DNA from: Myxococcota bacterium
GTDB taxonomy: Bacteria > Myxococcota > XYA12-FULL-58-9 > JALHOP01
Direction of reading: 5' to 3'
Length of the DNA stretch: 64,000 nucleotides
Assembly: GCA_041288095.1 (NCBI GenBank)
Contig: JBGGMJ010000136.1
Location: forward strand, 1 to 64,000
A program made the translations under genes and the position numbers. Within the stretch, counting starts at the first letter, position 1; each line of letters begins with the position of its first letter. The notes beneath the pieces were generated by a model, which had not been told where the DNA came from, made no database searches, and worked only from the letters and a program-made list of their open reading frames with translations. Positions 121 through 28,138 of this stretch are shown here, one piece after another.

Positions 121-1620
121 TCAGCCTAGTGGGAAAAAGCCGCCGCCACGGACGTAGGGCTCGGGCTCACCATTGAAGACACGGCGCCGCTCATTGATGT
201 TGTCGCGCAGGTCTTTCACGTAGCGGTCGCCGCGGGTGAACCAACTGCCGGTGGAGGTGGCGTAGATGCGCTCCATGAGGGGGTCGTAGGCTTCGCGCGG
301 CATCGTCACCCACACGGGGTTCTCTTGCGCCGCCAGAGCACGGAAGAACTCGTAGCGACGCATGTCACCGCCATCGACGCCGTCCTGTGCGAAGACGGAG
401 CGGAGCACCTCGTGCACCGCGGCCGCACGTGCCAGCTGTGTCGGCGTCGCCTGGGCGCGCGTCGCCGGCAGCTCGCCGTGGGCGCGCGCGAGCAGTGACG
501 CCGCGCTCTCCGGGCCGAGCTCGTTGACGCGGGCGGTGAGTGTCGCCACCGCTTGGTCGGGGTGATCACGCAGCACCGTGTTCACTTGCAGCGTCCGCAG
601 CATGTCCCATTGGCTGTACTCGGGCGTCCCCTGCTGCTGCGGCCGCGGCCCGGCGAGGATGCCCCAAGCCTCGGCGGTGACGTTCGTGCGGTCGAACTGC
701 GAGCTCAGCACGACACCGCGCGAGTTTTCCCAGACGGGCGTCGCGCGCAGCGCCTGCAGCAGCGGGTCATCGTTGGCGATGCCGGGGTTCGCGCGTAGGA
801 AGTCGACGATGCGGCGGGTCGCATCGAGGGGCTCACCCGCGGTGAGGGCCGCGACGCCACCACGAACCACCTCGGCGTTGTTGACACCCTCCGCCGACGC
901 CCGCGCGGCGATACCCAAGCGGCGCAGCACGTCCTCGCGCGCCGGACCGTCTTCGGCCGGTAGCGCCGCGATAGCGGACACAGCCGAGGCCTCATCGCGA
1001 ATCGGAATGGGACCAGCCGGCACGTTCAGGCGCGGGTCCGGGGCGTCGACTTCCCGATCGTCGCCGCCGACCGGTGCGTCCGCCGCGCCGGCGGCGCGTG
1101 TCATCGTCGGAAACTGCTCGCGCCAACCGGCACGCAAGCGGTCGCGCTCACCCGCGCGCGGCTCGGGTCGTTCGAGACCGAGCTGCAGCGGCGAGGCGCT
1201 CGTACCCAGGTGGGAGGCGAGCCCCAAGAAGTTATTGATGCCGGCCGCTTCGAACTCGCGTTGCGGAGCCGGTTCGCCGCGTGCCTGGTACGGCGTCGAG
1301 CGCTCACCGAGTGCCCGCTGCACGTCGCGAAGACGCTCGGAGCTCAGCTTGGCGTTGCCGGCACCGAAAACGCCGTCGATGACCAGCGGGTCGCCATCGC
1401 CGACCGCGTTGAGGATGTATTGCAAGGCCGCGGCATCTTCACCGCGGCTGCCGTGGCCGATGTAGCGGAGCTGGCCGCTCTCGACACGGCCCACGAGCTC
1501 GCGCACTAGATCGAGGGCGTTCTGACGGGTGAGCGGGTCACGCCAGTTGATGGCGCCTTGGGCTTCCTGGTTGCCGCGGAGCGCATAGGCTTGGCTGATG
1601 TGAAAAGTCACGGTCCCCAC
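121..1620 (-). CDS. hypothetical protein with N-terminal peptidoglycan-binding-like (PG_binding_1) segment
   Basis: 499-aa ORF; GSRGEDAAALQYILNAVG..LVIDGVFGAG..VQRALG matches the PG-binding repeat pattern; remainder helical and unrecognised; no signal peptide seen. Confidence 0.65.
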   Translation of the reverse strand: MGTVTFHISQAYALRGNQEAQGAINWRDPLTRQNALDLVRELVGRVESGQLRYIGHGSRGEDAAALQYILNAVGDGDPLVIDGVFGAGNAKLSSERLRDVQRALGERSTPYQARGEPAPQREFEAAGINNFLGLASHLGTSASPLQLGLERPEPRAGERDRLRAGWREQFPTMTRAAGAADAPVGGDDREVDAPDPRLNVPAGPIPIRDEASAVSAIAALPAEDGPAREDVLRRLGIAARASAEGVNNAEVVRGGVAALTAGEPLDATRRIVDFLRANPGIANDDPLLQALRATPVWENSRGVVLSSQFDRTNVTAEAWGILAGPRPQQQGTPEYSQWDMLRTLQVNTVLRDHPDQAVATLTARVNELGPESAASLLARAHGELPATRAQATPTQLARAAAVHEVLRSVFAQDGVDGGDMRRYEFFRALAAQENPVWVTMPREAYDPLMERIYATSTGSWFTRGDRYVKDLRDNINERRRVFNGEPEPYVRGGGFFPLG

Positions 1621-1644
1621 CCATCTTCGGAATTCGTGTTTTCA

Positions 1645-1671
1645 GTATCGGGTCGGGGTGCCTTTCGTTGC
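1645..1671 (-). promoter_or_regulatory. sigma-28-like promoter motif
   Basis: minus strand GCAA-cgaaaggcaccccga(15)-CCCGATAC, 24 nt upstream of GTG 1620. Confidence 0.65.
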
Positions 1672-1721
1672 GCGAAATGGCCCGAGGAGGCCTGACGCTG
1701 GGTCACAGGCGCCAATCGGGC

Positions 1722-1760
1722 AAAAAAAAACGCCCGGTCATGCGAGCATGCCGGGCGTTT
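1722..1760 (-). terminator. rho-independent terminator of rpsU
   Basis: stem AAACGCCCGG/CCGGGCGTTT with a 9-nt A-run on plus (U-tract on minus) just downstream of rpsU. Confidence 0.8.
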
Positions 1761-1779
1761 CTCTTCGTAACCTGGAAGC

Positions 1780-1977
1780 TTAGCGACGCGCGCGGTTCGC
1801 GCTGCGGCGGCGGCGCTTTTCAGCGCTGCGCTGCTTCTCCTTCTTGCGAATGGAGGGCTTCAGGTAGTGCTCGCGGCGGCGAACTTCCTTGAGGATGCCA
1901 GCAGCTTCGACCTTCTTCTTGAAGCGCTTCAGAGCCTTCTCGAACGGCTCGCCTTCTTTGACGACAACTTTCGTCAT
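1780..1977 (-). CDS. rpsU: 30S ribosomal protein bS21
   Basis: [52 protein letters not shown] Shine-Dalgarno upstream. Confidence 0.97.
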
Positions 1978-2089
1978 ATGCACTCACCTCCTTCGCGATG
2001 GATTTCGGCCACGTCGATGGACGTCGAGCCGGGGCGCGTGGATACCGGACTCGCCGAGGCCCGGCAAGTCGAAACGGGTCGCTCGCCGC

Positions 2090-3721
2090 TCAATCGTCGC
2101 GCATCGGCACCGAAACACCGGGTGGGGCGATGCCGCGCGGCTCGCGCAGAGCTTGGTCGCCGAAGGCCTCACGGTACTCGCCACGCAAGATGCTCTGATA
2201 GCCGTCGTAGGTGCCATCGGCCCGCATGCGGTCGCGCATCGTCGACTCGAAGCCGCCGGTCAACGCCAGGAGATTGAGGAACGTGCCGTCGACCGTCTTC
2301 ATGGGTACCGATTGCCGGCCGTCGTTGGTGACCGCCTCGCCGCCGCCGATTGACGTCACCGCATGCCGCGCGCGCAGGCCGTTGAGCAGCCACGCGAGGC
2401 CCTCGCGTCCGCCATCGCGACCTGACTGCTCGAGCAGCACCGGGAAGACACCATAGAGCGCGTAGAACGGATGGTCGGTCACTGGCTCGCGCGCGATGCT
2501 GGGGATGCCGTGGTCGATGGCGTAGCCGCCGCTCGGCGAGTTGATCGAGGCGCCGAAGCCGGGCTTGGCTCTGCGAACCGCGTCGTTGGTGCGGATCTCC
2601 TGTCGGATGCGAAACAGGTCGCGGTATTCGGGCAGGTCACGCTTGGGCATGATCGCGAACTCCCACTCCTCGTGCGACGAGCCCCAGAAGCCCTGCCAGG
2701 TCGTGCCGTCCTGGTGCTCGACCCGCTCCATGCGCGTCTGCGCCCACATGCGCTCGACCTGTGTCCGCGATAGCGGCGGGCGCGCGTAGAGGCTCATGAA
2801 GTGCAGCATCATCGCGCCTTCATGCACGCCGTGCTCGGCGCGGATGAAGCCGTATGGGTAGCCTTCGTAGGCGACGTTGGCGTCGCGGTTGTTGCTGATG
2901 CGCGTCTGGTCGCGAACCGCGTTGACGTTCTCGTCGAAGAAGACCCGGCGGACGTTGTTCGCGAGCAGGTCGTTGAAGCCGCGGTAGCGATCCGCCAGGG
3001 CGGTGTGGCCCTGCTGGCGTAACGCGTGCTCGACGCCGAGCAGCACGAACGCCCACTCACCATTGTCGAGCGCCGGTACGTGGCGCTGCCAGTAGCTGTC
3101 CGAGGGCTCGACGCTGCCGTCGTCGCGGAGCACGACCCAGGGCATGAAGCCTCCGTAGCCGGGATACTCGCGGGCGAAGCGCTCGTAGGTGGCAAGCTTG
3201 CGCTCCAAGATACGCAGCACCTCGGCCTGCGCATCGACCGGCATGAGGCGCAGCGCCAAGGGGTCGCGCTCGAGGATCTTCACCAACAGCGCGAGGTCTA
3301 GGCACTCCTTGGCAGGCACCGTCCAGGAACGCTGGCTCGCGGGCTCACGCGTCGCCGGGTCGAGATTCACGCCGTCGACGGCGAGTCCCGTGCGAGCGTC
3401 GCGTGCCAGGCGGAAGAACGGGGCCTCGGCGGTGAAGTAGTCCTCGACGAAAGCCCGCGCTCGCACCGGGTCACGCAGCACCTCGTCGACCGTATAATCG
3501 AGCGGAAACCTCCCGGGGGTCGCGCTGCGCATCGTCGGGGCCGGGAGGCTCAGGGCCTGCGCCATGCGCGTACCGCGCATGAGCCGCCGCCAGCCCTCCA
3601 CCCGCGTGTCATCCGACACCGTGGGCGCCAAGGGACGCTCCGGAGGCCGCGTTGTACCCGAATCGAATGGGCCAGGGATGACATGCGGCGAGCGTGTCAC
3701 CCGCCCGACGTCGTCTGCCAT
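2090..3721 (-). CDS. putative endo-beta-1,2-glucanase, GH162-like, with unstructured N-terminal extension
   Basis: motifs YPGYGGFMPW, VPALDNGEW, HEG, GFWGSSHEEW, PGFGASIN, GIPSIA, YGVFPVLL and TVDG parallel, in order, my recollection of fungal GH162 (TfSGL-type) sequences. Confidence 0.7.
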   Translation of the reverse strand: MADDVGRVTRSPHVIPGPFDSGTTRPPERPLAPTVSDDTRVEGWRRLMRGTRMAQALSLPAPTMRSATPGRFPLDYTVDEVLRDPVRARAFVEDYFTAEAPFFRLARDARTGLAVDGVNLDPATREPASQRSWTVPAKECLDLALLVKILERDPLALRLMPVDAQAEVLRILERKLATYERFAREYPGYGGFMPWVVLRDDGSVEPSDSYWQRHVPALDNGEWAFVLLGVEHALRQQGHTALADRYRGFNDLLANNVRRVFFDENVNAVRDQTRISNNRDANVAYEGYPYGFIRAEHGVHEGAMMLHFMSLYARPPLSRTQVERMWAQTRMERVEHQDGTTWQGFWGSSHEEWEFAIMPKRDLPEYRDLFRIRQEIRTNDAVRRAKPGFGASINSPSGGYAIDHGIPSIAREPVTDHPFYALYGVFPVLLEQSGRDGGREGLAWLLNGLRARHAVTSIGGGEAVTNDGRQSVPMKTVDGTFLNLLALTGGFESTMRDRMRADGTYDGYQSILRGEYREAFGDQALREPRGIAPPGVSVPMRDD

Positions 3722-3768
3722 GGATATGAGCCTGAATGGAGGAAGAGAAGCGGAAGGAGTGGCTCACG

Positions 3769-3796
3769 TTATCGCGGCGGTTCACGGGGGCGTTGC
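3769..3796 (-). promoter_or_regulatory. sigma-28-like promoter motif (16-nt spacer)
   Basis: minus strand GCAA-cgcccccgtgaaccgc(16)-CGCGATAA upstream of the GH162-like gene; overlaps the stop region of the upstream kinase. Confidence 0.5.
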
Positions 3797-5854
3797 TTGG
3801 GGCTGCGTCGGCTCGTCGGCGAGCCGCGCCAATGTGCGAACCAGCTCGATCGGCACGCACGGCTTGGCCATGTGCGCATCGAACCCGGCACCCAAGGCGT
3901 CGGCGACGTCGGATTGGCGAGCGTAGGCGCTGAGAGCCAACGCGGGCACACGGTGCTCCCCCTGCTCGCTGCGCAAGCGACGCATGAAGGTGTAGCCGTC
4001 TTCGCTTGGCATGCCGATGTCGGAGACGACGACGTCGACCCTCGGGCCGGCGAGCTTGATGCGGCCCTCGGACGCAGATCCAGCGAGCGAAACCTGGGCC
4101 CCTGCCCGCTCCAGTACGCCACGCACGACCTCGCGAGCATCCGGCTCGTCGTCGACGACCAGCACATGCAGCCCGGTGAGCGCATCGCCCAGCGTAATCG
4201 GCTTGCTCGGGCTCCTGGTAAGCCCATGGGCTCGAGCATCGCGGAGTCGTACCGTGAAGAGCGCTCCAGCTCCGCGACCGGCGCTCTCGGCGGTGACGCG
4301 CCCGCCATGCAGCTCGACGAGGTGGCGAACGATGGCGAGCCCGAGACCCAGACCACCGTGCGCGCGCGTGCTGATGCGATCCGCCTGATAGAAACGGTCG
4401 AAGACACGGGGCAAGAAGCTCGGATCGATCCCGACTCCGTTGTCGCGGACACTGATGCAGACCTCGCCATCGCAGCGTTGGACACTGACGTGGATGACTC
4501 CGCCCTCGGGCGTGAACTTCACGGCGTTCGAGAGCAGATTCAGCACGATCTGGTGCATGCGGCTCTCGTCGACGTTGATGTAGATCGATTCGTCGAGGTC
4601 GGCGGTCAGCGTTTGCTTCTTGGTTTCGACGGTCGGCCGCACGGAGTCGAGCGCCGAGCCGACGAGCGCGGCGAGATGGGTATCCGTTCGCACCAGCTCG
4701 AGCTTCCCCGCGATGATGCGGCTGATGTCGAGCAGATCGTTGATCACCAGCGCCTGGGCGCGTGCGTTCCGATCCAGCGCATCGATGGCGCGCGCCTGTT
4801 TGTCGGGCGGCAAGCGCCCGTCGCGCATCAGATGCAGGTAGCCCATGATGGCATTGAGCGGCGTGCGCAGCTCGTGGCTCACCATGGCGAGAAAGTCGTC
4901 CTTGGCCTGATTTGCGCGCTCGGCTTCGGCTCGCGCCGCGCGTTCGCTCGCGAGGAAGTCCTTACGCTCACGCTCGAGCTTCACGTGCGCGGTGATGTCG
5001 TAGCCATGGACGAGGATGCCCGAAACTACACCGGCCGCGTCGCGGACCGGCTGGTAGGCAAAGTCGAGAAACACTTCTTCGAGCACGTCATCGCGCCGCA
5101 GCACGACGCGCTCGGCGTGCCCGTAATACGGGACACCGGTCGAGAAGACCCGATCGAGGAGGCGGATGTAGCCCTGCGACGCCACCTCCGGCAGCACCTC
5201 GGTAACGCTGCGCCCGACGATGTTGCCTGGGTCGTCGGTACGGCCGATCAGGCGCATGTAGCTATCGTTCGCGATCTCGAAGATGTGACGGGGCCCGCGC
5301 ACGAAGGTCATGAAACCGGGTGTGTGACGGAAGACGCGCAGCAGGTGCAGGCGTTGCTGGTCGGCGAGGTCCTTGTCTGCTTCGGCGGTGCGAGCACGTC
5401 CCAGCACCGCGGCCCCCCACTGTGTGTGATCGGCTCGCTCGTGAGCGCTCGCGCGACGGAGCTCGGTCACATCGACGGTGTGCTGCAGCACCGCGGTAAC
5501 CCGCCCTTTCGCATCGCGCAGGGGCGCGTGCGTCGCGCTCCAGAAGCGTTCGCGGACGACGATCTCGCCGCCGACGTGCATCGGCACCTTGTAAGGAATG
5601 AAGGCGAGCTCGTCCGGCTTACCCGTCGTGAGCACGCGCTCGAGGGAGCGGCGTAGGGCCTGAGCGCTCTCGTTGTTGGGCTTGGTCGAGTCATTGGGGA
5701 AGACGTCGAAGACACGACGGCCGGCGAGGTCTTCCCAGCGGCTCGCGGTCACGCGCAGATAAGCCGGGTTGGCCGCAATGAAGCGCAGCTCCGCGTCCAC
5801 CACGACATAGGGGTTGGGCGATGCGGCGAAGAGGGCCTCGAAATCGATCTGCAT
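3782..5854 (-). CDS. hybrid sensor histidine kinase (PAS-PAS-HisKA-HATPase-REC), cytoplasmic
   Basis: two PAS_4-like segments, H-box SHELRTPL, N-box NLLSNAVKFT, G-boxes DNGVG and GGLGLGL, C-terminal receiver VVDD..SDIGMP..KP. Confidence 0.93.
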   Translation of the reverse strand: MQIDFEALFAASPNPYVVVDAELRFIAANPAYLRVTASRWEDLAGRRVFDVFPNDSTKPNNESAQALRRSLERVLTTGKPDELAFIPYKVPMHVGGEIVVRERFWSATHAPLRDAKGRVTAVLQHTVDVTELRRASAHERADHTQWGAAVLGRARTAEADKDLADQQRLHLLRVFRHTPGFMTFVRGPRHIFEIANDSYMRLIGRTDDPGNIVGRSVTEVLPEVASQGYIRLLDRVFSTGVPYYGHAERVVLRRDDVLEEVFLDFAYQPVRDAAGVVSGILVHGYDITAHVKLERERKDFLASERAARAEAERANQAKDDFLAMVSHELRTPLNAIMGYLHLMRDGRLPPDKQARAIDALDRNARAQALVINDLLDISRIIAGKLELVRTDTHLAALVGSALDSVRPTVETKKQTLTADLDESIYINVDESRMHQIVLNLLSNAVKFTPEGGVIHVSVQRCDGEVCISVRDNGVGIDPSFLPRVFDRFYQADRISTRAHGGLGLGLAIVRHLVELHGGRVTAESAGRGAGALFTVRLRDARAHGLTRSPSKPITLGDALTGLHVLVVDDEPDAREVVRGVLERAGAQVSLAGSASEGRIKLAGPRVDVVVSDIGMPSEDGYTFMRRLRSEQGEHRVPALALSAYARQSDVADALGAGFDAHMAKPCVPIELVRTLARLADEPTQPQATPP

Positions 5855-5903: not shown

Positions 5904-7742
5904 CTAGACCCGCACTCCGATGCCGGTCACCCGGACGAGCTCGTCGAAGGTCGTGATGCCGGTCCGCAGCCGGTCGAGCGCCGAGTCTCGCAGCGGGCGC
6001 ATGCCACTTGCCACGGCCTTGTCGCGGAGCTGCTCTTCGGGGACACCTGCTTGCAACGCGCCGGTGAGGTCCTTGGTGGCGCTCAACATCTCGAAAATAC
6101 CGACGCGGCCGTAGTAGCCGGTGCCCCGACAGTGGACGCAGCCCGCGCCTTCGCAGACCCCACCGTAGGCGGCGCGCTCGCTCTCCGGAATGCCGAGGAT
6201 GAGGAGCTCGTCGCCGCTGAGCGCCGCTGGCCCCTTGCAGTGCGGACAGATCCGCCGCAGCAGACGCTGCGCCATCACCCCAACCAGCGTCGAGCTGATG
6301 AGGAACGGCTCGACCCCGAGATCGACCAAACGCGTCACCGCGCCAACCGTGTCGTTGGTGTGCAACGTGCTGAACACCAGATGGCCGGTAAGCGCGGCCT
6401 CGACCGCCATTTGCGCGGTCTCACCGTCGCGGATCTCGCCGATCATGATGATGTCGGGATCCTGGCGGAGGATGCTGCGCATGGCGCTCGCGAAATCGAC
6501 ACCGATCTTCGGCTGCGCCTGCATCTGATTGAAGGCGTCGGTGACCATTTCGATCGGGTCCTCGACGGTGGTGACGTTGACGTCGTCCCCCGCGAGCCGG
6601 CGCAGCGTGGTGTAGAGCGTCGTCGTTTTGCCGCTGCCGGTCGGGCCGGTGATCAAGACGAGCCCGTGAGGCTCGGCGATCCAGCGCTCGAAGGTCTGCT
6701 GATCGTCGGTCTCGAAGCCGAGGTCCGGCAGCTCTTGCAGGAGGACCCCGGGGTCGAAGATGCGGATGACGATCTTCTCGCCGAACGCCACCGGGATACA
6801 GGAGACGCGAAGCTCGACCTCTTTGTCCGCTAGAACGGTCTTGATGCGTCCGTCTTGAGGCCGGCGTTTCTCGGCGATGTCCATGCGCGCGATGGTCTTG
6901 AGACGCGACGCGATGGCCGGGTGCACACGCTTCGGAATGGTGTGGACGTTGTGCAGCACGCCGTCGATGCGCAGGCGGACCTGCGAGTCGCCCTTGCGCG
7001 GCTCGATGTGGATGTCGCTCGCGCGTTGGTCGAAGGCATAGCGAAAGAGGAAGTCGACGGCGTTGACGACCGGCTGGTCGCTGCCCTCGATCTCTCCGAC
7101 GTTGCGCAGCTTCACCAGCTGTTCGAAGTCGCCCGACGCGGCGGATCCCGAGCTTTCCCTGGCGGCCGACTCGACGCTCTTGCGGAAGCCGTAGATCTCG
7201 GTGATCGACTTGAGAATGTCGCGTTTGCTGGCGACGACGCGCTTGAGCTTGCCTGGGTAGATGCGCCGCAGGTTCTCGATGACCTCGACGTCGAATGGAT
7301 TGTCGACCGCGATGGTCAGCTCACCGTTGCCCTCGGCGAGCGGCAGCACCACGTGCCGCAACGCGAATGGCCGCGATAGCGTACGCGTAATGAGCTGCAT
7401 GTCGAGCTCGAGCGGGTCGACCTTCTTGTACCCGAGCTGCGACTTGGCGGCGACCACCTGGGCGAGCTTGTCCTCGTCGAGCTCACCGCCGCGCCGATCG
7501 GCCAGCTTGAACGACGCCACCAGCTCGGCCGGGCTCACGGCATAATGCGCCCCCGCCGGCAGGTCGCCGCTCCCGAGCACCTGTTTGATCACCCTCGCCC
7601 GCTGCTCGCGCTGCTGGACCTCGACGCTCTTACGCTGCTCGGCGTCGATGATCTGGTTGCGCTCGAGGACATCGAGCAGCCATTCGACGGAGTACGTCGC
7701 TTGGCTGACCTTTTGGGGCGCGGCTGGCGTCGTGGAGCTCAA
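5904..7742 (-). CDS. GspE/PilB family secretion/pilus ATPase
   Basis: ASDIHIEP, RRPQDGR, Walker A GPTGSGKTTT, TVEDPIE, LRQDPDIIMIGEIRD, GHLVFSTLHTND, CxxC..CxxC. Confidence 0.93.
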   Translation of the reverse strand: MSSTTPAAPQKVSQATYSVEWLLDVLERNQIIDAEQRKSVEVQQREQRARVIKQVLGSGDLPAGAHYAVSPAELVASFKLADRRGGELDEDKLAQVVAAKSQLGYKKVDPLELDMQLITRTLSRPFALRHVVLPLAEGNGELTIAVDNPFDVEVIENLRRIYPGKLKRVVASKRDILKSITEIYGFRKSVESAARESSGSAASGDFEQLVKLRNVGEIEGSDQPVVNAVDFLFRYAFDQRASDIHIEPRKGDSQVRLRIDGVLHNVHTIPKRVHPAIASRLKTIARMDIAEKRRPQDGRIKTVLADKEVELRVSCIPVAFGEKIVIRIFDPGVLLQELPDLGFETDDQQTFERWIAEPHGLVLITGPTGSGKTTTLYTTLRRLAGDDVNVTTVEDPIEMVTDAFNQMQAQPKIGVDFASAMRSILRQDPDIIMIGEIRDGETAQMAVEAALTGHLVFSTLHTNDTVGAVTRLVDLGVEPFLISSTLVGVMAQRLLRRICPHCKGPAALSGDELLILGIPESERAAYGGVCEGAGCVHCRGTGYYGRVGIFEMLSATKDLTGALQAGVPEEQLRDKAVASGMRPLRDSALDRLRTGITTFDELVRVTGIGVRV

Positions 7743-7779: not shown

Positions 7780-8178
7780 CTAGCGAGCCGGCGCGATCAT
7801 GTTGCCGGTGTCGAGCGCGTCTTTGCCGGCGAAGACGAGGTTCCAGTACCAGCCGGTGACGGGCTCGAAGGCTGCCAGGGCACCCAGGCCGATGCTCGCC
7901 GCGCCAGACTTGAAGAACATGAACGCCGCGTCACGTTGACCGTCCTTCAGCGCCGCGACCGAAAAACCGAGCTTGGCGACGCCGTAAGTCATCGACGTCC
8001 AACCACCGATGACCGCAAGACCGGGAACGCAGCTCGCGCCCTGGGTGACGGCGTTGCCGGCGTTGATAGCGGCGCTGAAGTTGCGTGCGAGGTAGTTGCT
8101 GTTGATCTCGCTGCGCGACGGGCGGTCGATGTCGGTGAGGACGAGAAGCTGACGAATGGGATTGGTGGTCAAGGCCAT
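7780..8178 (-). CDS. small hydrophobic Gly/Ala-rich hypothetical protein
   Basis: 132-aa ORF filling the gap, GGAG upstream of ATG, hydrophobic C-terminal half. Confidence 0.65.
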   Translation of the reverse strand: MALTTNPIRQLLVLTDIDRPSRSEINSNYLARNFSAAINAGNAVTQGASCVPGLAVIGGWTSMTYGVAKLGFSVAALKDGQRDAAFMFFKSGAASIGLGALAAFEPVTGWYWNLVFAGKDALDTGNMIAPAR

Positions 8179-8291: not shown

Positions 8292-9629
8292 CTACATCAG
8301 CACTAGGCCTTCATCCTCGCTGAACTTCAGCTGGCCCTTCATGATCGCTTGCGTCGTCTTGCTGCGCTCGTCGGAGAGCTCGGCGATGTGCGCCAGGAGC
8401 TGCGGGTGAGTCGAGGCGATCTCCGAAAACACGCGCCGCGGAAGCTTGAGCACGATCGACTTCTTGAGCGTCTTGATGTTGGCGCTCACCGGGTTGTTGG
8501 TGAGCAGCGACATCTCGCCGAAGACGTCGCCTTCCTTGAGGTGAGCGAGCACCTGGCGCTTGCCGTCGACTTTCTTCGAGACCTCGGCGCGGCCCGAGAG
8601 CAGCAGGTAGAGCCCGTCGCCTTTCTCGCCCTCCTCGAGGAGCTTCTCGTTGGCGCCGACCTCGCGGCTCTTGAACTGCTCGATGAGCGTGCGGCGCTGA
8701 TTGGCGTCGAGGGGCCGGAAGATTGGCGATGTCGCCATCAGGTTCGAGAGCAAACGTTGGCGGTAGAACCGCAAGAGCGCGTGTTTCACCGAGGGATAGC
8801 TGTCGACGACGCTCGACAAGGTTTCGCGCGACACCTGGAAGAGCAGCGTCTCTTCCTCGGCGATGACGCTGGCGGTGCGGGGTGACTCGGAGAGCAAGGC
8901 CATCTCGCCGAAGAAAGCGCCGTCGGTGAGGTGCGCGAGGACGACCTCTTTGCCCTGGTCGCCGGTCTTGGTGATCTTCACGCGCCCGCTCGAGACGATG
9001 AACATCGAGTCGTCGACGTCGCCCTGACGAATGATGAACTCGTCGGGCACGGCGTTGCGCATCTCCATGCGCTCGAGCAACGCGATGAAGGCGTTCTTCG
9101 GCAGCTCGGAGAACAGCGGGATGGTGGGGAGCTCTTTGACCGCCGGCTCCGCCTCTTCGATCATCACGATGTCGTCGTCGTCGAGCTCCTCGATCTCGGC
9201 GGCGGCCGGCTTCTGCTTTAGCGGAGGAGGTGTGGCGGCGGGAGCGCTGGCCTTCGGCGGCGGCGGCGTGAAGCCCGCCGGTAACGAGGGCGGCTGACTC
9301 GAGCGGCCGCTCTTCTTGGCGTAGAGGTCGGCGATGATCTTCTGCGTGTCCGTGTGCTGCGGATCCATCTCGAGGATCAGCTTGCAGGCGGCGATGGCTT
9401 TGAGCAGCAAGCCGTCGGCGGCGTAGACCTGCGCGACGCTGATGTACTGGGCAATCGCCTTGTCGCTCTGGTTGAGCTTGCGGAGAATGTCGCCGCACTT
9501 CAGACGCGCGGTGATGTCGCCGGAGTCGGCGGCCAACACCTCTTCGTAAACCGCGAGGGCTTTCTCGAGCTTGCCCTTCTGAACGAGCTGGGCGGCTTCA
9601 TCTTTAAGCTTGCGGAGCTTTTCGCTCAT
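8292..9629 (-). CDS. TPR protein with two cyclic-nucleotide-binding domains
   Basis: N-terminal TPR helices, Pro-rich linker, two cNMP domains (GAFFGEMALL..PRTASV; GDVFGEMSLL..VSANI). Confidence 0.88.
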   Translation of the reverse strand: MSEKLRKLKDEAAQLVQKGKLEKALAVYEEVLAADSGDITARLKCGDILRKLNQSDKAIAQYISVAQVYAADGLLLKAIAACKLILEMDPQHTDTQKIIADLYAKKSGRSSQPPSLPAGFTPPPPKASAPAATPPPLKQKPAAAEIEELDDDDIVMIEEAEPAVKELPTIPLFSELPKNAFIALLERMEMRNAVPDEFIIRQGDVDDSMFIVSSGRVKITKTGDQGKEVVLAHLTDGAFFGEMALLSESPRTASVIAEEETLLFQVSRETLSSVVDSYPSVKHALLRFYRQRLLSNLMATSPIFRPLDANQRRTLIEQFKSREVGANEKLLEEGEKGDGLYLLLSGRAEVSKKVDGKRQVLAHLKEGDVFGEMSLLTNNPVSANIKTLKKSIVLKLPRRVFSEIASTHPQLLAHIAELSDERSKTTQAIMKGQLKFSEDEGLVLM

Positions 9630-11006: not shown

Positions 11007-11999
11007 TTAGGTGCCGGTCTCCCGTTCGGCGACGACTGGTTCCGCGGGGTTCTCGGCGGCCGGGTCGATGCTGATGCCTTGGCTTGCGAAAGCATCGCGC
11101 GTCTTGGTCTCGGTTGCGTCCAGGCCCAACACCGCCTCGTCGAGCGCTTGTACAGCGGGTTCCTCGTCGAGGCGTAGTTTCTTGGCGTTGCGGCTCAGGT
11201 CATCCAGCGTCGGCATCTCGCCCAACGTCTGGGTGATCTCTTCCTGCGACTCTTCGGTCAGCTCACTGAACTCACGCAGCGACGGTAGCTGTCCCAGGGA
11301 CGCAAGATTGAAGAAGCTCAAGAACTCCTTCGTGGTGCCGTAGAGCATCGGGCGGCCGGGCTCTTCGCGCTTGCCGACGATCCGCACGAGGTTGCGGTCG
11401 AGCAGCAGACGAATGGTCGCGCCGCAGTCGACGCCGCGGATGTGATCGATCTCCGGCTTCGTGGCCGGCTGGCGATAAGCGATGATGGCCAGGGTCTCGA
11501 GCGCCGGGCGCGACATGCGCACGGGCCGTTGCTCGGTCGTGGAACGCAGGTAGCTCGCCCATTTCGCGTTCGAGCGGAACGTCCAGCCGTCAGCGACCTC
11601 GGCGAGATTGAAGCCGCGCGTCTCGGCGTCGACGGCCCAGCGCTTCTTGAGCAGCTTGAGCGCGTCCTTGACGAGGGCCAACTTGTGGGCGCGGACCGTC
11701 TCGTGATCCTCGGCCCAGGTGCGCTCCATCACCTTCTTGATGTCGCCGAGCGTCACCGGCTCGCCGGCCGCGAAGATGATCGCCTCCACGGCATCGACGA
11801 AGTCTTCCGCGCGAATGTCGTCGAGGTTCGGTAGCTCGAGCTGGACGGCCTCGCCCGCCGGTGCTTCCTCGACCTCGGCCTCCAGCTCGGCTGCGGGATC
11901 GTCGGACGCCTCGGCGGCCGCTTCGGCCTCGGACACTTTCACTTCCGCGTCGCCGTTCTCGGCGATGTTCGCGGACTCATCCAGCGTATTGCGATTCAT
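11007..11999 (-). CDS. scpB: SMC-Scp complex subunit ScpB
   Basis: VEAIIFAAGEP, ALETLAIIAYRQP, IRGVD, PGRPMLYGTTKEFL; acidic N- and C-terminal extensions. Confidence 0.93.
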   Translation of the reverse strand: MNRNTLDESANIAENGDAEVKVSEAEAAAEASDDPAAELEAEVEEAPAGEAVQLELPNLDDIRAEDFVDAVEAIIFAAGEPVTLGDIKKVMERTWAEDHETVRAHKLALVKDALKLLKKRWAVDAETRGFNLAEVADGWTFRSNAKWASYLRSTTEQRPVRMSRPALETLAIIAYRQPATKPEIDHIRGVDCGATIRLLLDRNLVRIVGKREEPGRPMLYGTTKEFLSFFNLASLGQLPSLREFSELTEESQEEITQTLGEMPTLDDLSRNAKKLRLDEEPAVQALDEAVLGLDATETKTRDAFASQGISIDPAAENPAEPVVAERETGT

Positions 12000-15213: not shown

Positions 15214-15240
15214 GCAACGGTAGCGGCCGTTTGCCGATGA
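15214..15240 (+). promoter_or_regulatory. sigma-28-like promoter motif
   Basis: GCAA-cggtagcggccgttt(15)-GCCGATGA, 7 nt before GTG 15248. Confidence 0.6.
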
Positions 15241-15247: not shown

Positions 15248-16291
15248 GTGGAAGTCGACAATCACCGGCGGGTCGCCGCCAAGGTTCTCACGCAGGGCCC
15301 AGCCAACGCCCAGCTAGACCTCGCGAGCGCCGTAAGCCCCCCCCCGATGTGGCGAGCCGTGAGCATCCCCGACTCCCGCGCCCTCGCGACCGCCCGCCCC
15401 GAAGAGCTCGAGAGCTTCGGCTGCCGAGGCAAGGTCGCTATCGCCAACAAGGACCAGATCCTCGACGATATCTGGCACAAGCTCGGCGGCAAGCCCCGGT
15501 TCATCTACGGCCTCGCCGAGGTGGGCAGCGACTACGGCCACGCTTTCTGCGCCTTCGAGATGGAGAATCCGAAGACCGGCAAGCACGAATTCATGGTGCC
15601 GAACATCGTCGGAGTGCCCGGCTCGAAGATGGTCCAATGGATCTCGCTCACCGAGTACCTCTTCGGCGTCAACGACTTCAAAGATGCCAATCGCCAGCGC
15701 GGTTTTTACAATCGCCCTTACACCCTGGTCGCGCTCAACGACCCGAAGATCGACGTCGACGCCTGCCGCGACTACTTCCTCGACCTCGCAAAGCGCCACC
15801 AAGCCGGGACGGCGAAGTTCTCGCTGGTGCTGCCGCGCATCCGCAACGTCCTGCGCGCGCCGCTGCACGCCCTCGGCCTGCCCTACTGTGAATACGGCAA
15901 CTGCGCCCGGTGGAACTTTGAGGCCATGAAAGCGGCGAAGATCTTCCCCAGCGAGATCCACCTCGGAAACTTCTTCACGCACAACACCATGTGGCCCAAG
16001 CGCACCGCCGTTCGCTTGCTCGACGGCCTGTCGCACGTGGCGCGCGACGATGTCCGAGTCGTCCATCTCGAGCGCCCGCCGCATGCCCAGCTCAGCGCGA
16101 AGGGTAAGAGCGAAGGTCGCACCTACGTGAACGTCTTCACCCGCATCGCCGATCTCTTCGGCATCGTGACCGCCCGCGGCCGCCACTACGCGCACCTCTC
16201 CGAGCTCGCGCACGTGCGCGTCCACGTGCCCAAGGACACCATCACCGCGCACACCGAGACCCGTACCCCCAAAGCGCTAGCGGCGGCCTAA
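15248..16291 (+). CDS. hypothetical protein, possible circularly permuted papain-like (His-before-Cys) hydrolase
   Basis: 347-aa ORF with GC3-rich codons; YGHAF near the N-terminus and YGNCARW later; function is inference. Confidence 0.65.
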   Translation: MEVDNHRRVAAKVLTQGPANAQLDLASAVSPPPMWRAVSIPDSRALATARPEELESFGCRGKVAIANKDQILDDIWHKLGGKPRFIYGLAEVGSDYGHAFCAFEMENPKTGKHEFMVPNIVGVPGSKMVQWISLTEYLFGVNDFKDANRQRGFYNRPYTLVALNDPKIDVDACRDYFLDLAKRHQAGTAKFSLVLPRIRNVLRAPLHALGLPYCEYGNCARWNFEAMKAAKIFPSEIHLGNFFTHNTMWPKRTAVRLLDGLSHVARDDVRVVHLERPPHAQLSAKGKSEGRTYVNVFTRIADLFGIVTARGRHYAHLSELAHVRVHVPKDTITAHTETRTPKALAAA

Positions 16292-21797: not shown

Positions 21798-22028
21798 TTA
21801 CGCGCGCTTCTTTGGGCTGACCAGCATCATCGCCTGGGCGACGTTGCGCTGTGCGCCACGCTGAAGAAGAGCACGCCCTTGCATGAGCTTCTTCTCGTCC
21901 TTGGCAGCCTTGTTGAGCGCTTCAGTCGTCCCACCGCTGTTCAAAGCGGCCGCCCGTTGCTCGGCATGAGCGCCCGCCAAGGGCGTGCCGACTGGGCGAA
22001 TGGGTGATGAAAGCGATCCCGAAATCAT
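21798..22028 (-). CDS. small basic hypothetical protein
   Basis: 76-aa ORF with GGGAG upstream and two promoter-like motifs. Confidence 0.55.
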   Translation of the reverse strand: MISGSLSSPIRPVGTPLAGAHAEQRAAALNSGGTTEALNKAAKDEKKLMQGRALLQRGAQRNVAQAMMLVSPKKRA

Positions 22029-22726: not shown

Positions 22727-22731
22727 GAGGG

Positions 22732-23061
22732 TCAGTAGCGGCTACGCGTCAAATCGCCGCGCTTGCTCTGCAAGGCCGCGAGACTGAGGGGGCTCGGGGC
22801 GAGCGCCCACGAAACGACCGTGCCCACGACCGCGGCCTTCAGCCAGCCACCGAGCAACATCACCGTACCGAACGCGCCGGTGCCGGTGAGGACGAAAGCG
22901 GTCGCCGCGGCAGCGGCGCCGAGGAGCAGGATCTTGGTCTGGAATGAAGCGTCCTTGGGGGTCGCGACCTTCGCAATCGTTCCCATGTAGCCGCCGGTTG
23001 CGACTCCCACCAACACGCTCGCCGTCGCCCGCAACGCATCCGTCTTGCTCATCAACGCCAT
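22732..23061 (-). CDS. small hydrophobic Gly/Ala-rich membrane protein
   Basis: ATG 23061 with AAGGAG; GVATGGYMG and LLLGAAAAATAFVLTGTGAFG hydrophobic segments. Confidence 0.7.
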   Translation of the reverse strand: MALMSKTDALRATASVLVGVATGGYMGTIAKVATPKDASFQTKILLLGAAAAATAFVLTGTGAFGTVMLLGGWLKAAVVGTVVSWALAPSPLSLAALQSKRGDLTRSRY

Positions 23062-23084
23062 GACGCAACTCTCCTTGAGCGTCG

Positions 23085-23111
23085 TTATCGTTGCCGAGCT
23101 GGAAGGGTTGC
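23085..23111 (-). promoter_or_regulatory. sigma-28-like promoter motif
   Basis: minus strand GCAA-cccttccagctcggc(15)-AACGATAA. Confidence 0.58.
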
Positions 23112-23173
23112 GCATCCCGCCTCCGCCAGCGCGTCACGATCGAGGGGACGCGCTGGCGGCACCGCCGATGCAC

Positions 23174-23231: not shown

Positions 23232-23642
23232 ATGCAGATTCGCGCAGCCATCGATAAAGCTCTCCGCCTCACCGAGTTCGACACGATCCGTCCGAGTGAG
23301 CTGATCGAGCCGGGGCAGGCGCGTCAGCGCACGATGCAGAACAACGTGCTCAACGGCTTCATGTACGGCGTCAACGCGTTCGTGCCGATGTCGGGCGTCA
23401 TCCTCAATCCGCTGGTCGCCTTCGGCAAGTCCTGCGGCGCCATGTGGCAGATGATGCTGGCGATGAGCTTCCCGGAACAGGGAGGTGAGGCGCGCATGAA
23501 CCTCGCCGGTGACCTGCTCAAGTCCGCCGGCGAGAACTTCGTCGTCGGCGCCGCCTCGTGCCTCCCGGGCGCGGGTCCGGTGATCGCCGGCCTCTGGTCG
23601 GCGCGCAGCTTCGTCGACGCCAACCGCGCGCTCAAAACCTAG
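23232..23642 (+). CDS. small hydrophobic hypothetical protein
   Basis: ATG 23232 with GAGGA; MQIRAAIDKALRL..CLPGAGPVIAGLW. Confidence 0.7.
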   Translation: MQIRAAIDKALRLTEFDTIRPSELIEPGQARQRTMQNNVLNGFMYGVNAFVPMSGVILNPLVAFGKSCGAMWQMMLAMSFPEQGGEARMNLAGDLLKSAGENFVVGAASCLPGAGPVIAGLWSARSFVDANRALKT

Positions 23643-23661
23643 AGTCGCCCGGGCGGAGCTG

Positions 23662-24606: not shown

Positions 24607-24648
24607 GATTTCTCCCCCGTGCCGTAGCAAGTTCGCGGTGATCGGTGA

Positions 24649-24721
24649 TGGGTGGTGCGAGATTCGAACTCGCGACCAACGGATTAAAAGTCCGCTGCTC
24701 TACCGACTGAGCTAACCACCC
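24649..24721 (-). tRNA. tRNA-Lys(UUU), CCA not encoded
   Basis: GGGTGGTTAGCTCAGTCGGTAGAGCAGCGGACTTTTAATCCGTTGGTCGCGAGTTCGAATCTCGCACCACCCA. Confidence 0.96.
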
Positions 24722-24787
24722 TCGAAGGCGGCGCAACCTACTCGGCGCCACGCGATGGGTCAATGCGCTCTAGGCGATCGTTTGGCC

Positions 24788-25180
24788 CTATTTCACCGTG
24801 CCGGCGCGCTTCTTCTCGAGGAGCCGCTCCAGCTTGCGGAACAACACCGCGAACTGCAGCGGCTTGGTCTCGTAGTCGTCGGCGCCGAGCTCGAGGCCGA
24901 CGATACGATCACTTTGGCTGTCGCGCGCCGTCAGGAAGACCACCACGGCGTTCTTGAGCGCGCCAGTCGCATTCCAACGCTTTAGCAGATCGCGACCGTC
25001 GACCCCCGGCAGTTGCACGTCGAGGAGGACGACGTCCGGGACCTCCTTCTCCACTTCCTCGAGTGCGCGCGGACCAGTGTCGGCGACGCGTGTGCTGTAG
25101 CCGCGTGAGGTGCCGAACTTCGACAGCGCAAGCGCGATCTCGGGGTCGTCTTCGACGATGAGCAACGAGGCGGGAGGCAC
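24788..25180 (-). CDS. single-domain response regulator
   Basis: LLIVEDD, LLDVQLPGVDG, FLTAR, GADDYETKP; start approximate. Confidence 0.88.
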   Translation of the reverse strand: MPPASLLIVEDDPEIALALSKFGTSRGYSTRVADTGPRALEEVEKEVPDVVLLDVQLPGVDGRDLLKRWNATGALKNAVVVFLTARDSQSDRIVGLELGADDYETKPLQFAVLFRKLERLLEKKRAGTVK

Positions 25181-25246
25181 GCCTTCAACTATTCCGTAAG
25201 TGGCGGATCTTCTCAACTCCCGCTGGATCCGGTAGGACCCACGCCC

Positions 25247-26428: not shown

Positions 26429-26708
26429 TGCCGTGGCGGCGACGTTCCTGCGCCGCGGCCCAGTCTTCTTCGAAGCGCTCTTCGAGCGCCGCGCCATACA
26501 CGCGGCGCATGATGGTCTGAACGAGCTCGAGCGGCATGCCGCGCTTGTCGCCATGGCCAATCAGGCCGCGCAGCGCGTCCCGACGCTGGCCGTCGCGCAG
26601 CCGCGCCTCCAAATCGGTCTCCCCGTCCTCGGGGCCCGAGCGGAAGAACTCGATGTCGCTGGTCGCACGGTCGATGAATCCAGGGGGAAGGGCGGCAAAA
26701 GCACTCAC
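26406..26708 (-). CDS. small hypothetical protein
   Basis: GTG 26708 preceded by AAGGAGG; a CCCGATAA -10-like box at 26801-26808. Confidence 0.55.
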   Translation of the reverse strand: MSAFAALPPGFIDRATSDIEFFRSGPEDGETDLEARLRDGQRRDALRGLIGHGDKRGMPLELVQTIMRRVYGAALEERFEEDWAAAQERRRHGIRALSSQ

Positions 26709-26918
26709 GGTTGCCTCCTTTGGGGTGGCCGAGATGTGGATGTGTTGCACGGCGTGAGTGCAGCACACGTGCCACGCCAACCACGTACTCCGCACCCCTC
26801 TTATCGGGATAACGAAGGTTTCTCGGGGAGTGAGGCCCGCGATCTGAGGAGCGCTGGAGGGCCGCTTTTCACCCAGATCGACCGTTCCGCGGGCGTACGC
26901 CGCCCCGCCCCCTTCGAG

Positions 26919-26945
26919 GCAACTCGGTCGGGCTACCGCCGATAT
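26919..26945 (+). promoter_or_regulatory. sigma-28-like promoter motif
   Basis: GCAA-ctcggtcgggctacc(15)-GCCGATAT, 17 nt before ATG 26963. Confidence 0.68.
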
Positions 26946-26962
26946 GAACTAGACCCCGTACC

Positions 26963-28138
26963 ATGCGGACCTTACCCAACAAGAGCGCGGATCCCACCGT
27001 CGTTCGACGGAACCGTGTGCTTCGCTTCGGCCTCGACGGTTCTCGGGCCGCTAGCCTTGCGCCGGAACCGCGTCGCGCTCTCGCCCTACTACGGGCACTT
27101 GAGCTCGCCGGCAACGGGTCCGGCGCCAAGACCCTGCTCGGTTTCGGCGGCGCTACTCTGGAGTGCGAAGCGACCACCCCGACCATCAAGGCGTCCACCT
27201 GCGAGCGTATCGCCCGCGCCATGCGCGACAAGGGCTACCCGCTCACCGATCGCGGCGTGAAGCTGTTCAAGATGGAGCATGGCTTCTCGGGCTTGGTGCG
27301 GATTGGCCCGGACGTTGCCCAAGCGTACGTGCGCTGGGCCGGCGGCAAGAGCACCCGCGTCGAAGTCTCCGAGGTCGATGAGACGACGCGCGAGGAGCGC
27401 CGCGCCATCGAGATTCTCCGCATCATCGGACGCGAGCCCGATGAGCTCAAAGAGGTGTTCAAGGTTCTCGGGCTGCCGCGCTTTCGCCGCGGCGAGACCG
27501 TCGATCTCGGCAAGACCCATGGCCAAGCCCTGCTCTCCTGGGCCTCGGGCATGTCCTGGTCGTTCGACGACGACGGCTGGAAGCGCATCGCCAAGGCGTC
27601 TGGCGAACGCGATAGCGGAGCCCGCGTCACCGCCACCATCGCGCACTTCGTTCGCGACACCCTGCTCGGCGCCGGTGAGCCCGAGCACGACTACCGCAAG
27701 CAGACCTTCGGCGAGCACACCGTCAACGCCCGCACGCTCAAGATGCTGCAGCAGGTCCAGCGCACCCTGCATGGCCGCCTGAAGGTTCGTCTCATCCGTG
27801 GCTCGTACACCGGCGGCGACGACGACCGGGGCGCCCACCCGCATCAGGGCGGTGGCGCGGTCGACCTCTCGGTTCGTGGCATGGGCGCCGCGGACATCGA
27901 CCAGCTCGTCCTGGCCCTGCGCGAGGCCGGGTTCGCGGCTTGGTACCGTGCCCGCGAGGACCGCCCGCACGTTCACGCCGTCGCCGTTGGCGACCGCGAG
28001 ATGTCCGCTTCAGCGGCGTGGCAAGTACGCGCCTATTTCCGTGGGCGCGACGGCCGCAGCCATGCTGGACCCGACGCCCACAAGCACCTCTCGATTCGGC
28101 TCCCAAAATGGTTGGCGCGCTACCGCTTGGGCGCCTGA
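26963..28138 (+). CDS. protein with C-terminal M15/endolysin-like Zn peptidase domain
   Basis: RGSY..HQGGGAVD (H-x6-D), LREAGFAAWYR, HVHAVAVGD, QVRAYFRGRDG; no signal peptide seen. Confidence 0.72.
   Translation: MRTLPNKSADPTVVRRNRVLRFGLDGSRAASLAPEPRRALALLRALELAGNGSGAKTLLGFGGATLECEATTPTIKASTCERIARAMRDKGYPLTDRGVKLFKMEHGFSGLVRIGPDVAQAYVRWAGGKSTRVEVSEVDETTREERRAIEILRIIGREPDELKEVFKVLGLPRFRRGETVDLGKTHGQALLSWASGMSWSFDDDGWKRIAKASGERDSGARVTATIAHFVRDTLLGAGEPEHDYRKQTFGEHTVNARTLKMLQQVQRTLHGRLKVRLIRGSYTGGDDDRGAHPHQGGGAVDLSVRGMGAADIDQLVLALREAGFAAWYRAREDRPHVHAVAVGDREMSASAAWQVRAYFRGRDGRSHAGPDAHKHLSIRLPKWLARYRLGA

Follow-up and report, generated by a model that had tools for sequence, protein, structure and literature searches.

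Which promoter governs a group of genes for putative envelope-degrading enzymes in an uncultured Myxococcota bacterium, and by which route could products without signal peptides reach their substrates? The DNA analyzed here (the window) is a stretch of 64,000 nucleotides, positions 1 to 64,000 of contig JBGGMJ010000136.1 (assembly GCA_041288095.1), and the genes in question lie between positions 121 and 28,138. A preliminary description of this stretch had noticed a shared motif upstream of these genes, guessed that it was a sigma-28-type promoter, and proposed that the products are envelope-attacking effectors exported by a machine resembling a type III secretion system (T3SS). In our analysis, the window genes proved to belong to a large regulon whose defining element is GCAAC-N15/16-CCGATA. 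The best reading of the evidence, to which we assign a probability of roughly 0.5, is that this is a regulon of candidate antibacterial effectors under a T3SS-linked sigma factor.

The motif was obtained by aligning the regions upstream of the genes named in the preliminary description, which gave the bipartite element GCAAC-N15/16-CCGATA, with the extended consensus cGCAAC-N14/15-GCCGATA[A/C]. In the genome that carries the window (G000; 5.85 Mb, 212 contigs, 66% G+C, 90% complete), the exact motif occurred 117 times, with a spacer of 15 nt at 81 sites and 16 nt at 36 sites. Other spacers from 8 to 23 nt gave 0-4 sites each, and a reversed-pattern control gave four sites in the genome. G was found at -1 relative to CCGATA in 70 of the 117 sites, and A or C followed CCGATA in 96. 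A same-strand open reading frame (ORF) with high G+C at third codon positions (GC3) lay 3-100 nt downstream of 101/117 sites, compared with 1410/3000 random positions; when a true ORF 5' end was required, the counts were 69/117 and 388/3000. Several single-change versions were also enriched over the control, namely ACAAC, GAAAC, GCACC, [A/T/G]CGATA and CCGATC/G, with the CCGATG type occurring 28 times against nine in the control. The true set of sites is therefore larger than 117, and with tolerated variants the regulon is probably two to three times that size.

The -10 box, GCCGATAA, sits 15 nt after the four-base -35 core, as in promoters of the sigma-28 (FliA) class. The -35 box is GCAAC rather than the TAAA of that class: TAAA-N14-16-GCCGATA occurred once in the genome, and TAAA-N15/16-[GC]CGAT[GA]A showed no enrichment (four sites versus two in the control). 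Judged by sequence, the motif appears to be a real bipartite promoter with a sigma-28 (FliA)-like -10 box and spacing, and with GCAA in place of TAAA at -35. The earlier guess of a sigma-28-type promoter thus agrees with the spacer profile, the -10 box and the spacing, although the -35 box differs. In 19 of the 109 regulon genes defined below, the first possible start codon lay within 12 nt past the -10 box. Unless starts are misplaced, many regulon transcripts would be leaderless or nearly so.

Across the whole window, seven sites matched the motif with at most one mismatch. Six of them fell within positions 1-28138, at distances of 8-48 nt from their genes:

1646..1671, minus strand: exact site GCAAC-N15-CCGATA for gene 121-1620, ending 25 nt before its start
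3796, minus strand: variant GCAAC-N16-GCGATA, preceding gene 2090-3721
15214..15239, plus strand: one-mismatch site GCAAC-N15-CCGATG for gene 15248-16291, the mismatch being one enriched genome-wide
22089, minus strand: exact site, preceding ORF 21798-22028
23111, minus strand: site GCAAC-N15-ACGATA, preceding gene 22732-23061
26919..26944, plus strand: exact site GCAAC-N15-CCGATA for gene 26963-28138
46003..46028, minus strand: one-mismatch site GCAAC-N15-CCGATC, 126 nt before thrS (43864-45876)

The site near thrS, which could have arisen by chance or have a housekeeping role, was excluded from the set. As the site at 23111 falls inside the earlier ORF 22732-23115, the start of that gene is better placed at 23061, giving a product of 109 aa. 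No upstream site with at most one mismatch was found for 7780-8178 or 23232-23642, and only a two-mismatch version lay upstream of the former; the label "motif-bearing" is accordingly weaker for both. Both boxes before 26963-28138 were kept ahead of four orthologues (95, 87, 85 and 44% identity; five relatives searched). Three of these are in genomes of the same genus and the 44% one belongs to another family of the order, and the spacer and flanks diverge at these sites.

The genome contains the export machinery that candidate type III effectors would need. Genes for the non-flagellar type III export proteins SctV, U, R, S, T, Q, N, L, O and J were present, with SctV, the only FHIPEP protein in G000, on contig C31 and SctU on contig C41. 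A cluster on contig C92 encodes SctT, S, R and Q, a FliK-like protein, SctO, SctN, SctL, a FliG_M-like protein and a 292-aa SctJ. The motif also appears near these genes: an exact site lies directly after sctU, and a variant, ACAAC-N15-CCGATAAT, lies ahead of the 163-aa, SctI-like ORF that heads the SctJ operon. A TadB/C-like pair was found as well, while TssC, a marker of the type VI secretion system, was not found in the genome. The sct genes and the Tad-like pair agree with the earlier proposal in its requirement for an export system encoded outside the window.

Two FliA/WhiG-like sigma genes were found in G000, scoring 163.7 bits (C92) and 166 bits (C127) against TIGR02479 (FliA_WhiG; cut-off, 189.6 bits). 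Since FliA_WhiG is still the best family for the C92 sigma despite its score below the cut-off, we regard this protein as a divergent relative rather than a curated member. The genus as a whole has three FliA-family sigmas: flagellar, T3SS-linked and a third type. The features concerned are as follows:

C92:35188-36072, minus strand: T3SS-linked sigma gene, best-scoring family FliA_WhiG
C92:35188-38544, minus strand: operon containing this sigma gene, the same in loci L150-L167
C92:23691-24182, minus strand: 163-aa ORF heading the SctJ operon, with a weak match to SctI (T3SS_basalb_I, E 0.008, below cut-off)
C127:21744-22568, plus strand: third-type FliA paralogue, 166 bits, not linked to secretion genes
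G001:C2:523490-524128: flagellar FliA-family sigma of a relative

The sigma gene beside SctV on C31 encodes RpoH (334 bits) and was dropped as a secretion-linked sigma. Orthologues of the T3SS-linked sigma shared 95-99% identity within the genus and 63-80% within the order, and two further families contributed three genomes with orthologues at 56-69%. The sigma gene and sctO were on the same contig, 5-6 kb apart, in 11 genomes (G004, G008, G009, G010, G011, G013, G015, G019, G020, G025 and G029), and 19-25 kb apart in G000 and G001. The operon is conserved and encodes, in order, a Gly/Ala-rich protein of ~180 aa that ends in ...SNIMKTKHDTAKNxINNVR, a TPR protein (138 aa), a protein of ~160 aa whose N-terminus is disordered and whose C-terminus (...QLDGSPVLAQLVDEVTEGARK) is conserved, and the sigma factor. 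The ~160-aa product of the gene directly preceding the sigma gene is a possible FlgM-like anti-sigma factor.

The motif was present ahead of the sigma operon in eight of the 18 loci scanned, four times in exact form and four times with one mismatch. The same-strand site was exact in G009, G014, G029 and G037 and had one mismatch in G017, G019 and G040, in each case ~1600-1770 nt ahead of the sigma match; the site in G025 lay at -732. G000 itself has a two-mismatch version at the same place. These eight loci and the variants before the sigma and SctJ operons in G000 may reflect co-regulation with the T3SS, provided that the T3SS-linked sigma, rather than the third paralogue, is the one that reads the motif.

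The distribution of sites among relatives was examined alongside their flagellar genes. Same-genus genomes contained 91-143 motif sites, with controls of 1-4, and most other genomes of the order contained 8-60; one genome, 65% complete, had a single site. No flagellin was found in the G000 assembly. Three same-genus genomes had flagellin, a second FHIPEP protein adjoining the flagellins, and a flagellar FliA; because these relatives are flagellated and G000 is a metagenome-assembled genome (MAG) that is 90% complete, we read the lack of flagellin as a missing contig and not as a loss. In two genomes of the order, G014 and G016, there were 10-15 matches to flagellin, with several arranged in tandem on a single contig, which is unusually many for Myxococcota.

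The sigma-28-like -10 box and spacing, together with the presence of flagellin, FlhA and flagellar FliA in same-genus genomes, would also fit a regulon of the usual flagellar FliA kind, whose products, if they leave the cell at all, would do so through the type III apparatus of the flagellum. However, the flagellin promoters of five relatives read TAAAGG or TCAAGG ... CGATG and thus belong to another -35 class, and the TAAA form is not enriched in G000, as described above. Furthermore, the motif was enriched even in relatives in which no flagellin was found (G004, G006, G010 and G015; 17-42 sites). We consider a flagellar regulon very improbable, and the flagellar export route raised in the preliminary description is disfavoured by the different -35 box of the flagellin promoters. 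Taken together, the linkage of sigma and sctO, the motif before the sigma operon, the distinct flagellin -35 box and the sites in flagellin-less relatives make the T3SS-linked paralogue the likely reader of the motif. We infer, fairly strongly, that the motif is read by the FliA paralogue of the T3SS cluster. A literature search, which did not cover the original description of the myxobacterial system known as T3SS*, returned no paper on a T3SS-linked FliA-type sigma in Myxococcus.

A distant genome of another family, G029 (9 Mb, 70% G+C, no flagellin found), had five exact sites only. Two of these belong to its T3SS cluster, where the sigma operon has one upstream and a gene for a 73-aa helical protein has the other; the first gene of this sigma operon gave a weak match to a needle protein (T3SS_needle_F, E 0.044). 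A third exact site precedes a gene for a signal-less protein with PG_binding_1 (3e-20) and CHAP (3e-13) domains, and the remaining sites lie before a gene for a signal-less protein without a known family and inside a secretin-like gene. This pattern indicates that the combination of a T3SS cluster and a signal-less wall hydrolase is older than the expansion seen in G000.

The products of the window genes were then considered individually. The genes are listed below, together with two small neighbors that had been placed in the same set:

121..1620, minus strand: orphan protein, 499 aa, no signal peptide, C-terminal helical repeat, N-terminal part possibly resembling a peptidoglycan-binding domain
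2090..3721, minus strand: predicted GH162-type endo-beta-1,2-glucanase homologue, 543 aa, 69-residue N-terminal extension, no signal peptide
7780..8178, minus strand: small Gly/Ala-rich protein of a very rare family, 132 aa, no signal-peptide-like or transmembrane-like stretch
15248..16291, plus strand: orphan protein, 347 aa, putative circularly permuted papain-like (NlpC/P60 superfamily) fold
21798..22028, minus strand: ORF of 76 aa behind an exact motif site
22732..23061, minus strand: small Gly/Ala-rich protein, 109 aa, transmembrane-like stretch at residues 40-58, start corrected from 23115
23232..23642, plus strand: small Gly/Ala-rich protein, 136 aa
26963..28138, plus strand: putative LAS (M15-like) zinc peptidase-domain protein, 391 aa, helical N-terminal part, domain at residues 244-370, no signal peptide

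None of these eight proteins matched a Pfam family, even at E 10, or an NCBIfam family. Signals were called with a home-made hydrophobicity heuristic, not SignalP, and ORF starts were likewise set heuristically. By this method, nine ORF versions from the window showed no Sec-like N-terminus, RR motif or lipobox, the sole exception in the scan being an internal hydrophobic stretch in 22732-23061. The absence of Sec, Tat and lipoprotein signals claimed for the set was thereby borne out at the level of the heuristic.

Gene 2090-3721 encodes a clear homologue, as predicted from sequence, of GH162 endo-beta-1,2-glucanases. A phmmer search of the PDB matched its residues 70-521 to residues 15-477 of chain 6imu_A (TfSGL from Talaromyces funiculosus) at E 9.6e-40, and also matched 6imw, so that homology extends across the whole catalytic (alpha/alpha)6 domain. 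At the column where 6imu has E and the mutant 6imw has Q, the window protein has Glu (HEGAMM). According to the available portion of PMC12102758, the residue that differs between the two structures is the general acid E262, E262Q being an acid-catalyst mutant; the general-acid Glu is therefore common to TfSGL and the window protein, and the glucanase assignment made earlier is well supported. The same portion of that source describes GH162 as mostly eukaryotic. The window copy differs from TfSGL in being bacterial, in carrying a signal-less extension (residues 1-69) outside the GH162 match, and in lying behind the putative T3SS-type promoter. Close bacterial relatives were limited to nine MAG loci. 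A motif variant similar to that at 3796 was found ahead of the orthologue with 79% identity (L132), and the motif was absent before the more distant GH162 homologues (L133-L140).

The protein encoded by 26963-28138 had been described as an M15-like peptidase. Among 45 sequences, H294-x6-D301 and H338 were invariant and H336 was at least 90% conserved, giving the H-x6-D and H-x-H zinc-ligand pattern of LAS/M15 peptidases with the local motif HxxGxAxD. The AlphaFold2 model had a predicted local distance difference test (pLDDT) score of 88.8, with residues 1-13 below 50. Structural comparison with VIA-align matched the model to Hedgehog-N, 1lbu (Streptomyces DD-peptidase), VanX, VanY, LdcB and Ply500 with Z 5.9-7.3. 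The top 31 rows were all of the Hedgehog/DD-peptidase fold, with 95-119 residues aligned (root-mean-square deviation, 2.9-5.1) over model residues 242-391. As these Z scores are middling, it is the coherence of the match list that carries weight for the LAS fold. About 35 full-length relatives were found in Myxococcota and "Deltaproteobacteria" MAGs, and the last 150 residues recur in distant homologues fused to SH3_3, LysM or peptidoglycan-binding parts. No Pfam family (E up to 10), and hence no curated M15 profile, and no NCBIfam family matched the protein, and a PDB sequence search returned nothing. The invariant ligands and fold matches support the peptidase call even without a Pfam match, and the protein is predicted to work like an M15 enzyme while standing outside the curated M15 families.

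For 15248-16291, only six homologues were found in 5.8 billion clusters. H98, C219 and H279 were invariant in the seven sequences, with His before Cys in the chain. The AlphaFold2 model reached a mean pLDDT of 70, with residues 1-46 below 50. A VIA-wide comparison against 48,161 chains gave TseH (Z 7.8), 3kw0 (7.2), YiiX (7.1) and MARTX RID (6.8), followed by a row at 4.4. All four rows with Z of at least 5 are permuted papain-like folds, to be read with a model pLDDT of only 70 and Z scores below 8. Foldseek against the PDB gave no match at E <=0.001 for this model or for that of 26963-28138, so both fold calls rest on VIA-align Z scores and conserved residues. The best structural matches, with 141-150 residues aligned, were TseH (PDB 6v98), a T6SS effector of Vibrio cholerae, and the YiiX/C92 hydrolases, whose order of His and Cys agrees with that of the invariant H98 and C219. 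Identity to them was 8-9%, there was no Pfam or NCBIfam match, the delivery system differs, and the Z scores would permit a chance likeness of fold. The model points to a putative permuted papain-like fold for 15248-16291, and the earlier His/Cys papain-like call finds support at the fold level, with invariant H98 and C219 and Z of 6.8-7.8.

Other parts of the earlier assignment fared less well. For 121-1620, which had been called a peptidoglycan-binding-domain protein, one homologue was found in 5.8 billion clusters. No Pfam profile, including PG_binding_1, matched at E up to 10, no NCBIfam family matched, and a PDB sequence search returned nothing relevant. Atlas gave a PG_binding_1 lead at 0.75, below the tool's bar of 0.9, and HEAT/TPR-like structure rows with TM <0.4; the domain call was not upheld. 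The three small proteins are real ORFs with a Gly plus Ala content of 24-30%, as described, with a single transmembrane-like stretch in each of two of them and weak motif evidence for 7780-8178 and 23232-23642. Nine representatives of 7780-8178 were found at E <=1e-3 among 1.84 billion, and 23232-23642 was marginally similar to it (BLASTP E 0.01). With a GC3 of only 0.70, the coding status of 21798-22028 is uncertain. The disordered N-termini proposed for the set were recovered as low-pLDDT segments in 15248-16291 and 26963-28138, and residues 1-69 of 2090-3721 lie outside the GH162 match.

To describe the regulon as a whole, we took the best ORF behind each exact site (GC3 >=0.74, >=60 aa), which gave 109 ORFs, with eight sites dropped. 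Pfam matches (1e-4) were found for 26/109 regulon proteins and for 35/44 non-motif ORFs of the window (Fisher p = 2.6e-10), and 49/70 ORFs on two other contigs had matches. No NCBIfam match was obtained for 82 of 84 Pfam-less regulon proteins tested, and only two paralogue pairs were present among the 109. Signal-peptide-like N-termini were found in nine of the 109 proteins, compared with 1177/4461 crude genome ORFs (26%; p = 3.9e-6). Degradative enzymes are prominent among the annotated members of the regulon. The proteases comprised three subtilases (S8), two of the trypsin-like type, a clostripain and an M64 peptidase. Other annotated members included a GH3 protein, a class-3 lipase (Lipase_3), alpha/beta hydrolases, a serpin, an ExeM/NucH-like nuclease and a Ser/Thr kinase. 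The three S8 proteins, a Trypsin_2-PDZ protein and the M64, GH3, Lipase_3, serpin and ExeM/NucH-like proteins all lacked a signal-peptide-like N-terminus, as did the window's GH162 homologue, LAS-domain protein and papain-like protein. With moderate confidence, we infer that the regulon products, which are mostly lineage-specific and without Sec signals, are candidate substrates of the T3SS. Of the earlier proposal of T3SS-like export of envelope-attacking effectors, the apparatus, a T3SS-cluster sigma with the motif in relatives, and the depletion of Sec signals are now in place, and every check named there that computation could address turned out in its favor; a predatory way of life and export through the T3SS are its putative parts.

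Several observations weigh against a T3SS-linked sigma regulon of effectors, some of them on the regulator side. Ten of the 18 sigma loci had no site with at most one mismatch before the operon. In G005, with 60 sites, a search at E 1e-20 revealed no orthologue of the T3SS-linked sigma, but a paralogue of the C127 type (59% identity) is present. At 59% identity or more, orthologues of that type are confined to the genus (91-143 sites) and G005 (60 sites), the two lineages richest in the motif, and weak ones (40-41%) occur in G006 and G012. The C127-type paralogue may thus drive part or all of the site expansion. In its full form, this alternative holds that the C127-type sigma, at 166 bits to FliA_WhiG, reads the promoters in a WhiG-like developmental or sporulation program, in which the hydrolases remodel the producer's own envelope. 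However, genomes without this sigma still have 19-45 sites (G004, G009, G010, G013, G015 and G025), and no motif precedes its own gene, in contrast to the T3SS sigma operon. Signal-less hydrolases, moreover, could not reach the producer's own periplasm. We judge it improbable that the C127-type sigma accounts for the regulon.

The points on the product side are of a different kind. Although the genome has three secretins, none is on C92, and no T3SS-associated secretin was found there. The regulon includes cytoplasmic enzymes, namely a SpoU methylase, adenosine deaminase, glutathione peroxidase, homoserine dehydrogenase, an intracellular-type depolymerase of poly(hydroxybutyrate) and SCP2, and a depletion of signal peptides is equally expected of a cytoplasmic protein set. 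The nine members with Sec or lipoprotein signals mean that the regulon is not purely T3SS cargo, and the fold matches of two window enzymes are in a middling Z range (6-8). N-terminal composition was dropped as evidence for a T3SS signal, as the shifts relative to controls were only modest (Pro 1.55x, Lys 0.42x, Ser and Thr 1.12x).

These product-side observations would suit a life-phase program, in which a FliA-type sigma acts, as in Bdellovibrio, as the global regulator of one state, for example attack or swarming, starvation or development. The majority of the more than 100 products would then function within the producer itself, and a few enzymes would exit by lysis, in vesicles or through systems like Tad or the type II secretion system. 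The attack-phase FliA promoters of Bdellovibrio cover proteases, surface proteins and many uncharacterized proteins (available portion of PMC3627812), and the plain cytoplasmic enzymes, the Ser/Thr kinase, the members with Sec or lipoprotein signals, and the default absence of signals in cytoplasmic proteins all fit such a program. On the other hand, throughout the order and also outside it, the sigma gene is found within the T3SS cluster. The subtilases, trypsin-like protease, M64, GH3 and GH162 proteins and peptidoglycan hydrolase-like domains are signal-less even though their substrates are extracytoplasmic, and the members are almost all unrelated orphans, as is typical of effector repertoires. 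On balance, we regard a life-phase program as less likely than the T3SS-linked reading but as a serious alternative to it.

Under the T3SS-linked reading, a single sigma factor would bring about the joint production of signal-less candidate cargo, which might be delivered through the T3SS to neighboring bacteria. There, the targets of the enzymes could be glucans of the periplasm, peptidoglycan and other polymers. From the FliA-FlgM pair, one might speculate that the small conserved protein whose gene lies just upstream of that of the sigma holds the sigma factor until the machine is active.

In Pseudomonas syringae and Erwinia, the sigma factor HrpL is encoded in the T3SS cluster and recognizes the hrp-box promoter before the apparatus genes and before dozens of scattered genes for signal-less effectors. 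The hrp box can be used to list candidate effectors; HrpL is a sigma factor of the extracytoplasmic function type, and the effectors target plant cells. Both cases share a T3SS-encoded alternative sigma and one bipartite promoter before the apparatus and before unrelated signal-less genes. They differ in that the sigma here is of the FliA family, the recognizable enzymes are suited to bacterial envelopes, the set, with 117 exact sites, is the larger one, and the cargo is only candidate. The closest logic to that proposed here thus appears, by analogy, to be the HrpL/hrp-box system, but with a FliA-family sigma.

A second parallel is provided by Bdellovibrio bacteriovorus, in which 92 of 140 attack-phase promoters carry TTAAG-N16-CCGATA and are run by FliA (available portion of PMC3627812). 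As far as that text describes, the same CCGATA -10 box and spacing serve more than 90 promoters of a predator, including those of proteases and many uncharacterized proteins. In that organism, a single FliA drives the flagellar genes as well, with TTAAG as the -35 box, whereas a separate T3SS-cluster paralogue and a GCAAC -35 box are found here.

In Myxococcus xanthus, a "needleless" T3SS* (mxan_2434-2464) is needed together with Kil/Tad for prey lysis, and its effectors are called "potential" in the available portions of PMC12075869 and PMC10849154. As described in these portions, it resembles the present system in being a non-flagellar T3SS from Myxococcota whose cluster contains no dedicated secretin and in occurring alongside a Tad-like system. 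G029 shares with our genome the sigma operon and a motif inside its T3SS cluster. Unlike in the T3SS* case, the lineage studied here is also flagellated, and its motif set is more than 20 times that of G029 (117 vs 5). In the available text of PMC12075869, the word sigma is absent, so no sigma factor of the cluster is discussed in that text. Given the weak needle-protein match in G029, the myxobacterial "needleless" system may have needle-like parts that have gone unrecognized. A broader proposal, which we hold tentatively, is that a FliA-family sigma born inside the myxobacterial T3SS cluster marks cargo by one promoter. This would cover more than 100 signal-less proteins here, and the same promoter would pick out T3SS* lysis effectors in cultured myxobacteria, such as the PG_binding_1 and CHAP protein of G029.

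Further features of the window were noted. A lone GspE/PilB-type ATPase with an MshEN domain is encoded at 5904-7742 (minus strand), with no partner secretion genes in the window; it lies between the genes for the small protein 7780-8178 and for a hybrid histidine kinase with a PAS domain (3782-5854). A TPR protein that carries two cNMP-binding domains comes next (8292-9629). An ScpA homologue of 826 aa (11977-14457, minus strand) has its ScpA domain at residues 591-802, and its N-terminal extension of ~590 residues matches no family. A GGDEF diguanylate cyclase (30395-31282, minus strand) has an N-terminal FHA domain that also matches Yop-YscD_cpl (1.1e-14). Four long ORFs of 472, 537, 368 and 778 aa (50441-53473, minus strand; 55840-56943, minus strand; 58989-61322, plus strand) surround a TonB-dependent receptor and had no Pfam family and no motif site.

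With 83 of its 109 proteins lacking a Pfam match, the regulon is a rich source of family-less proteins. If the T3SS-linked reading is correct, candidate effectors could be listed cheaply from their promoters in any myxobacterial genome, including testable genes in culturable species. It would also represent a second independent recruitment of a FliA-type sigma for predator weaponry after Bdellovibrio, in which duplication and a changed -35 box would keep flagellar and weapon genes apart. For the cargo of the myxobacterial predation machine, which has long been sought, the members of this regulon are good candidates.

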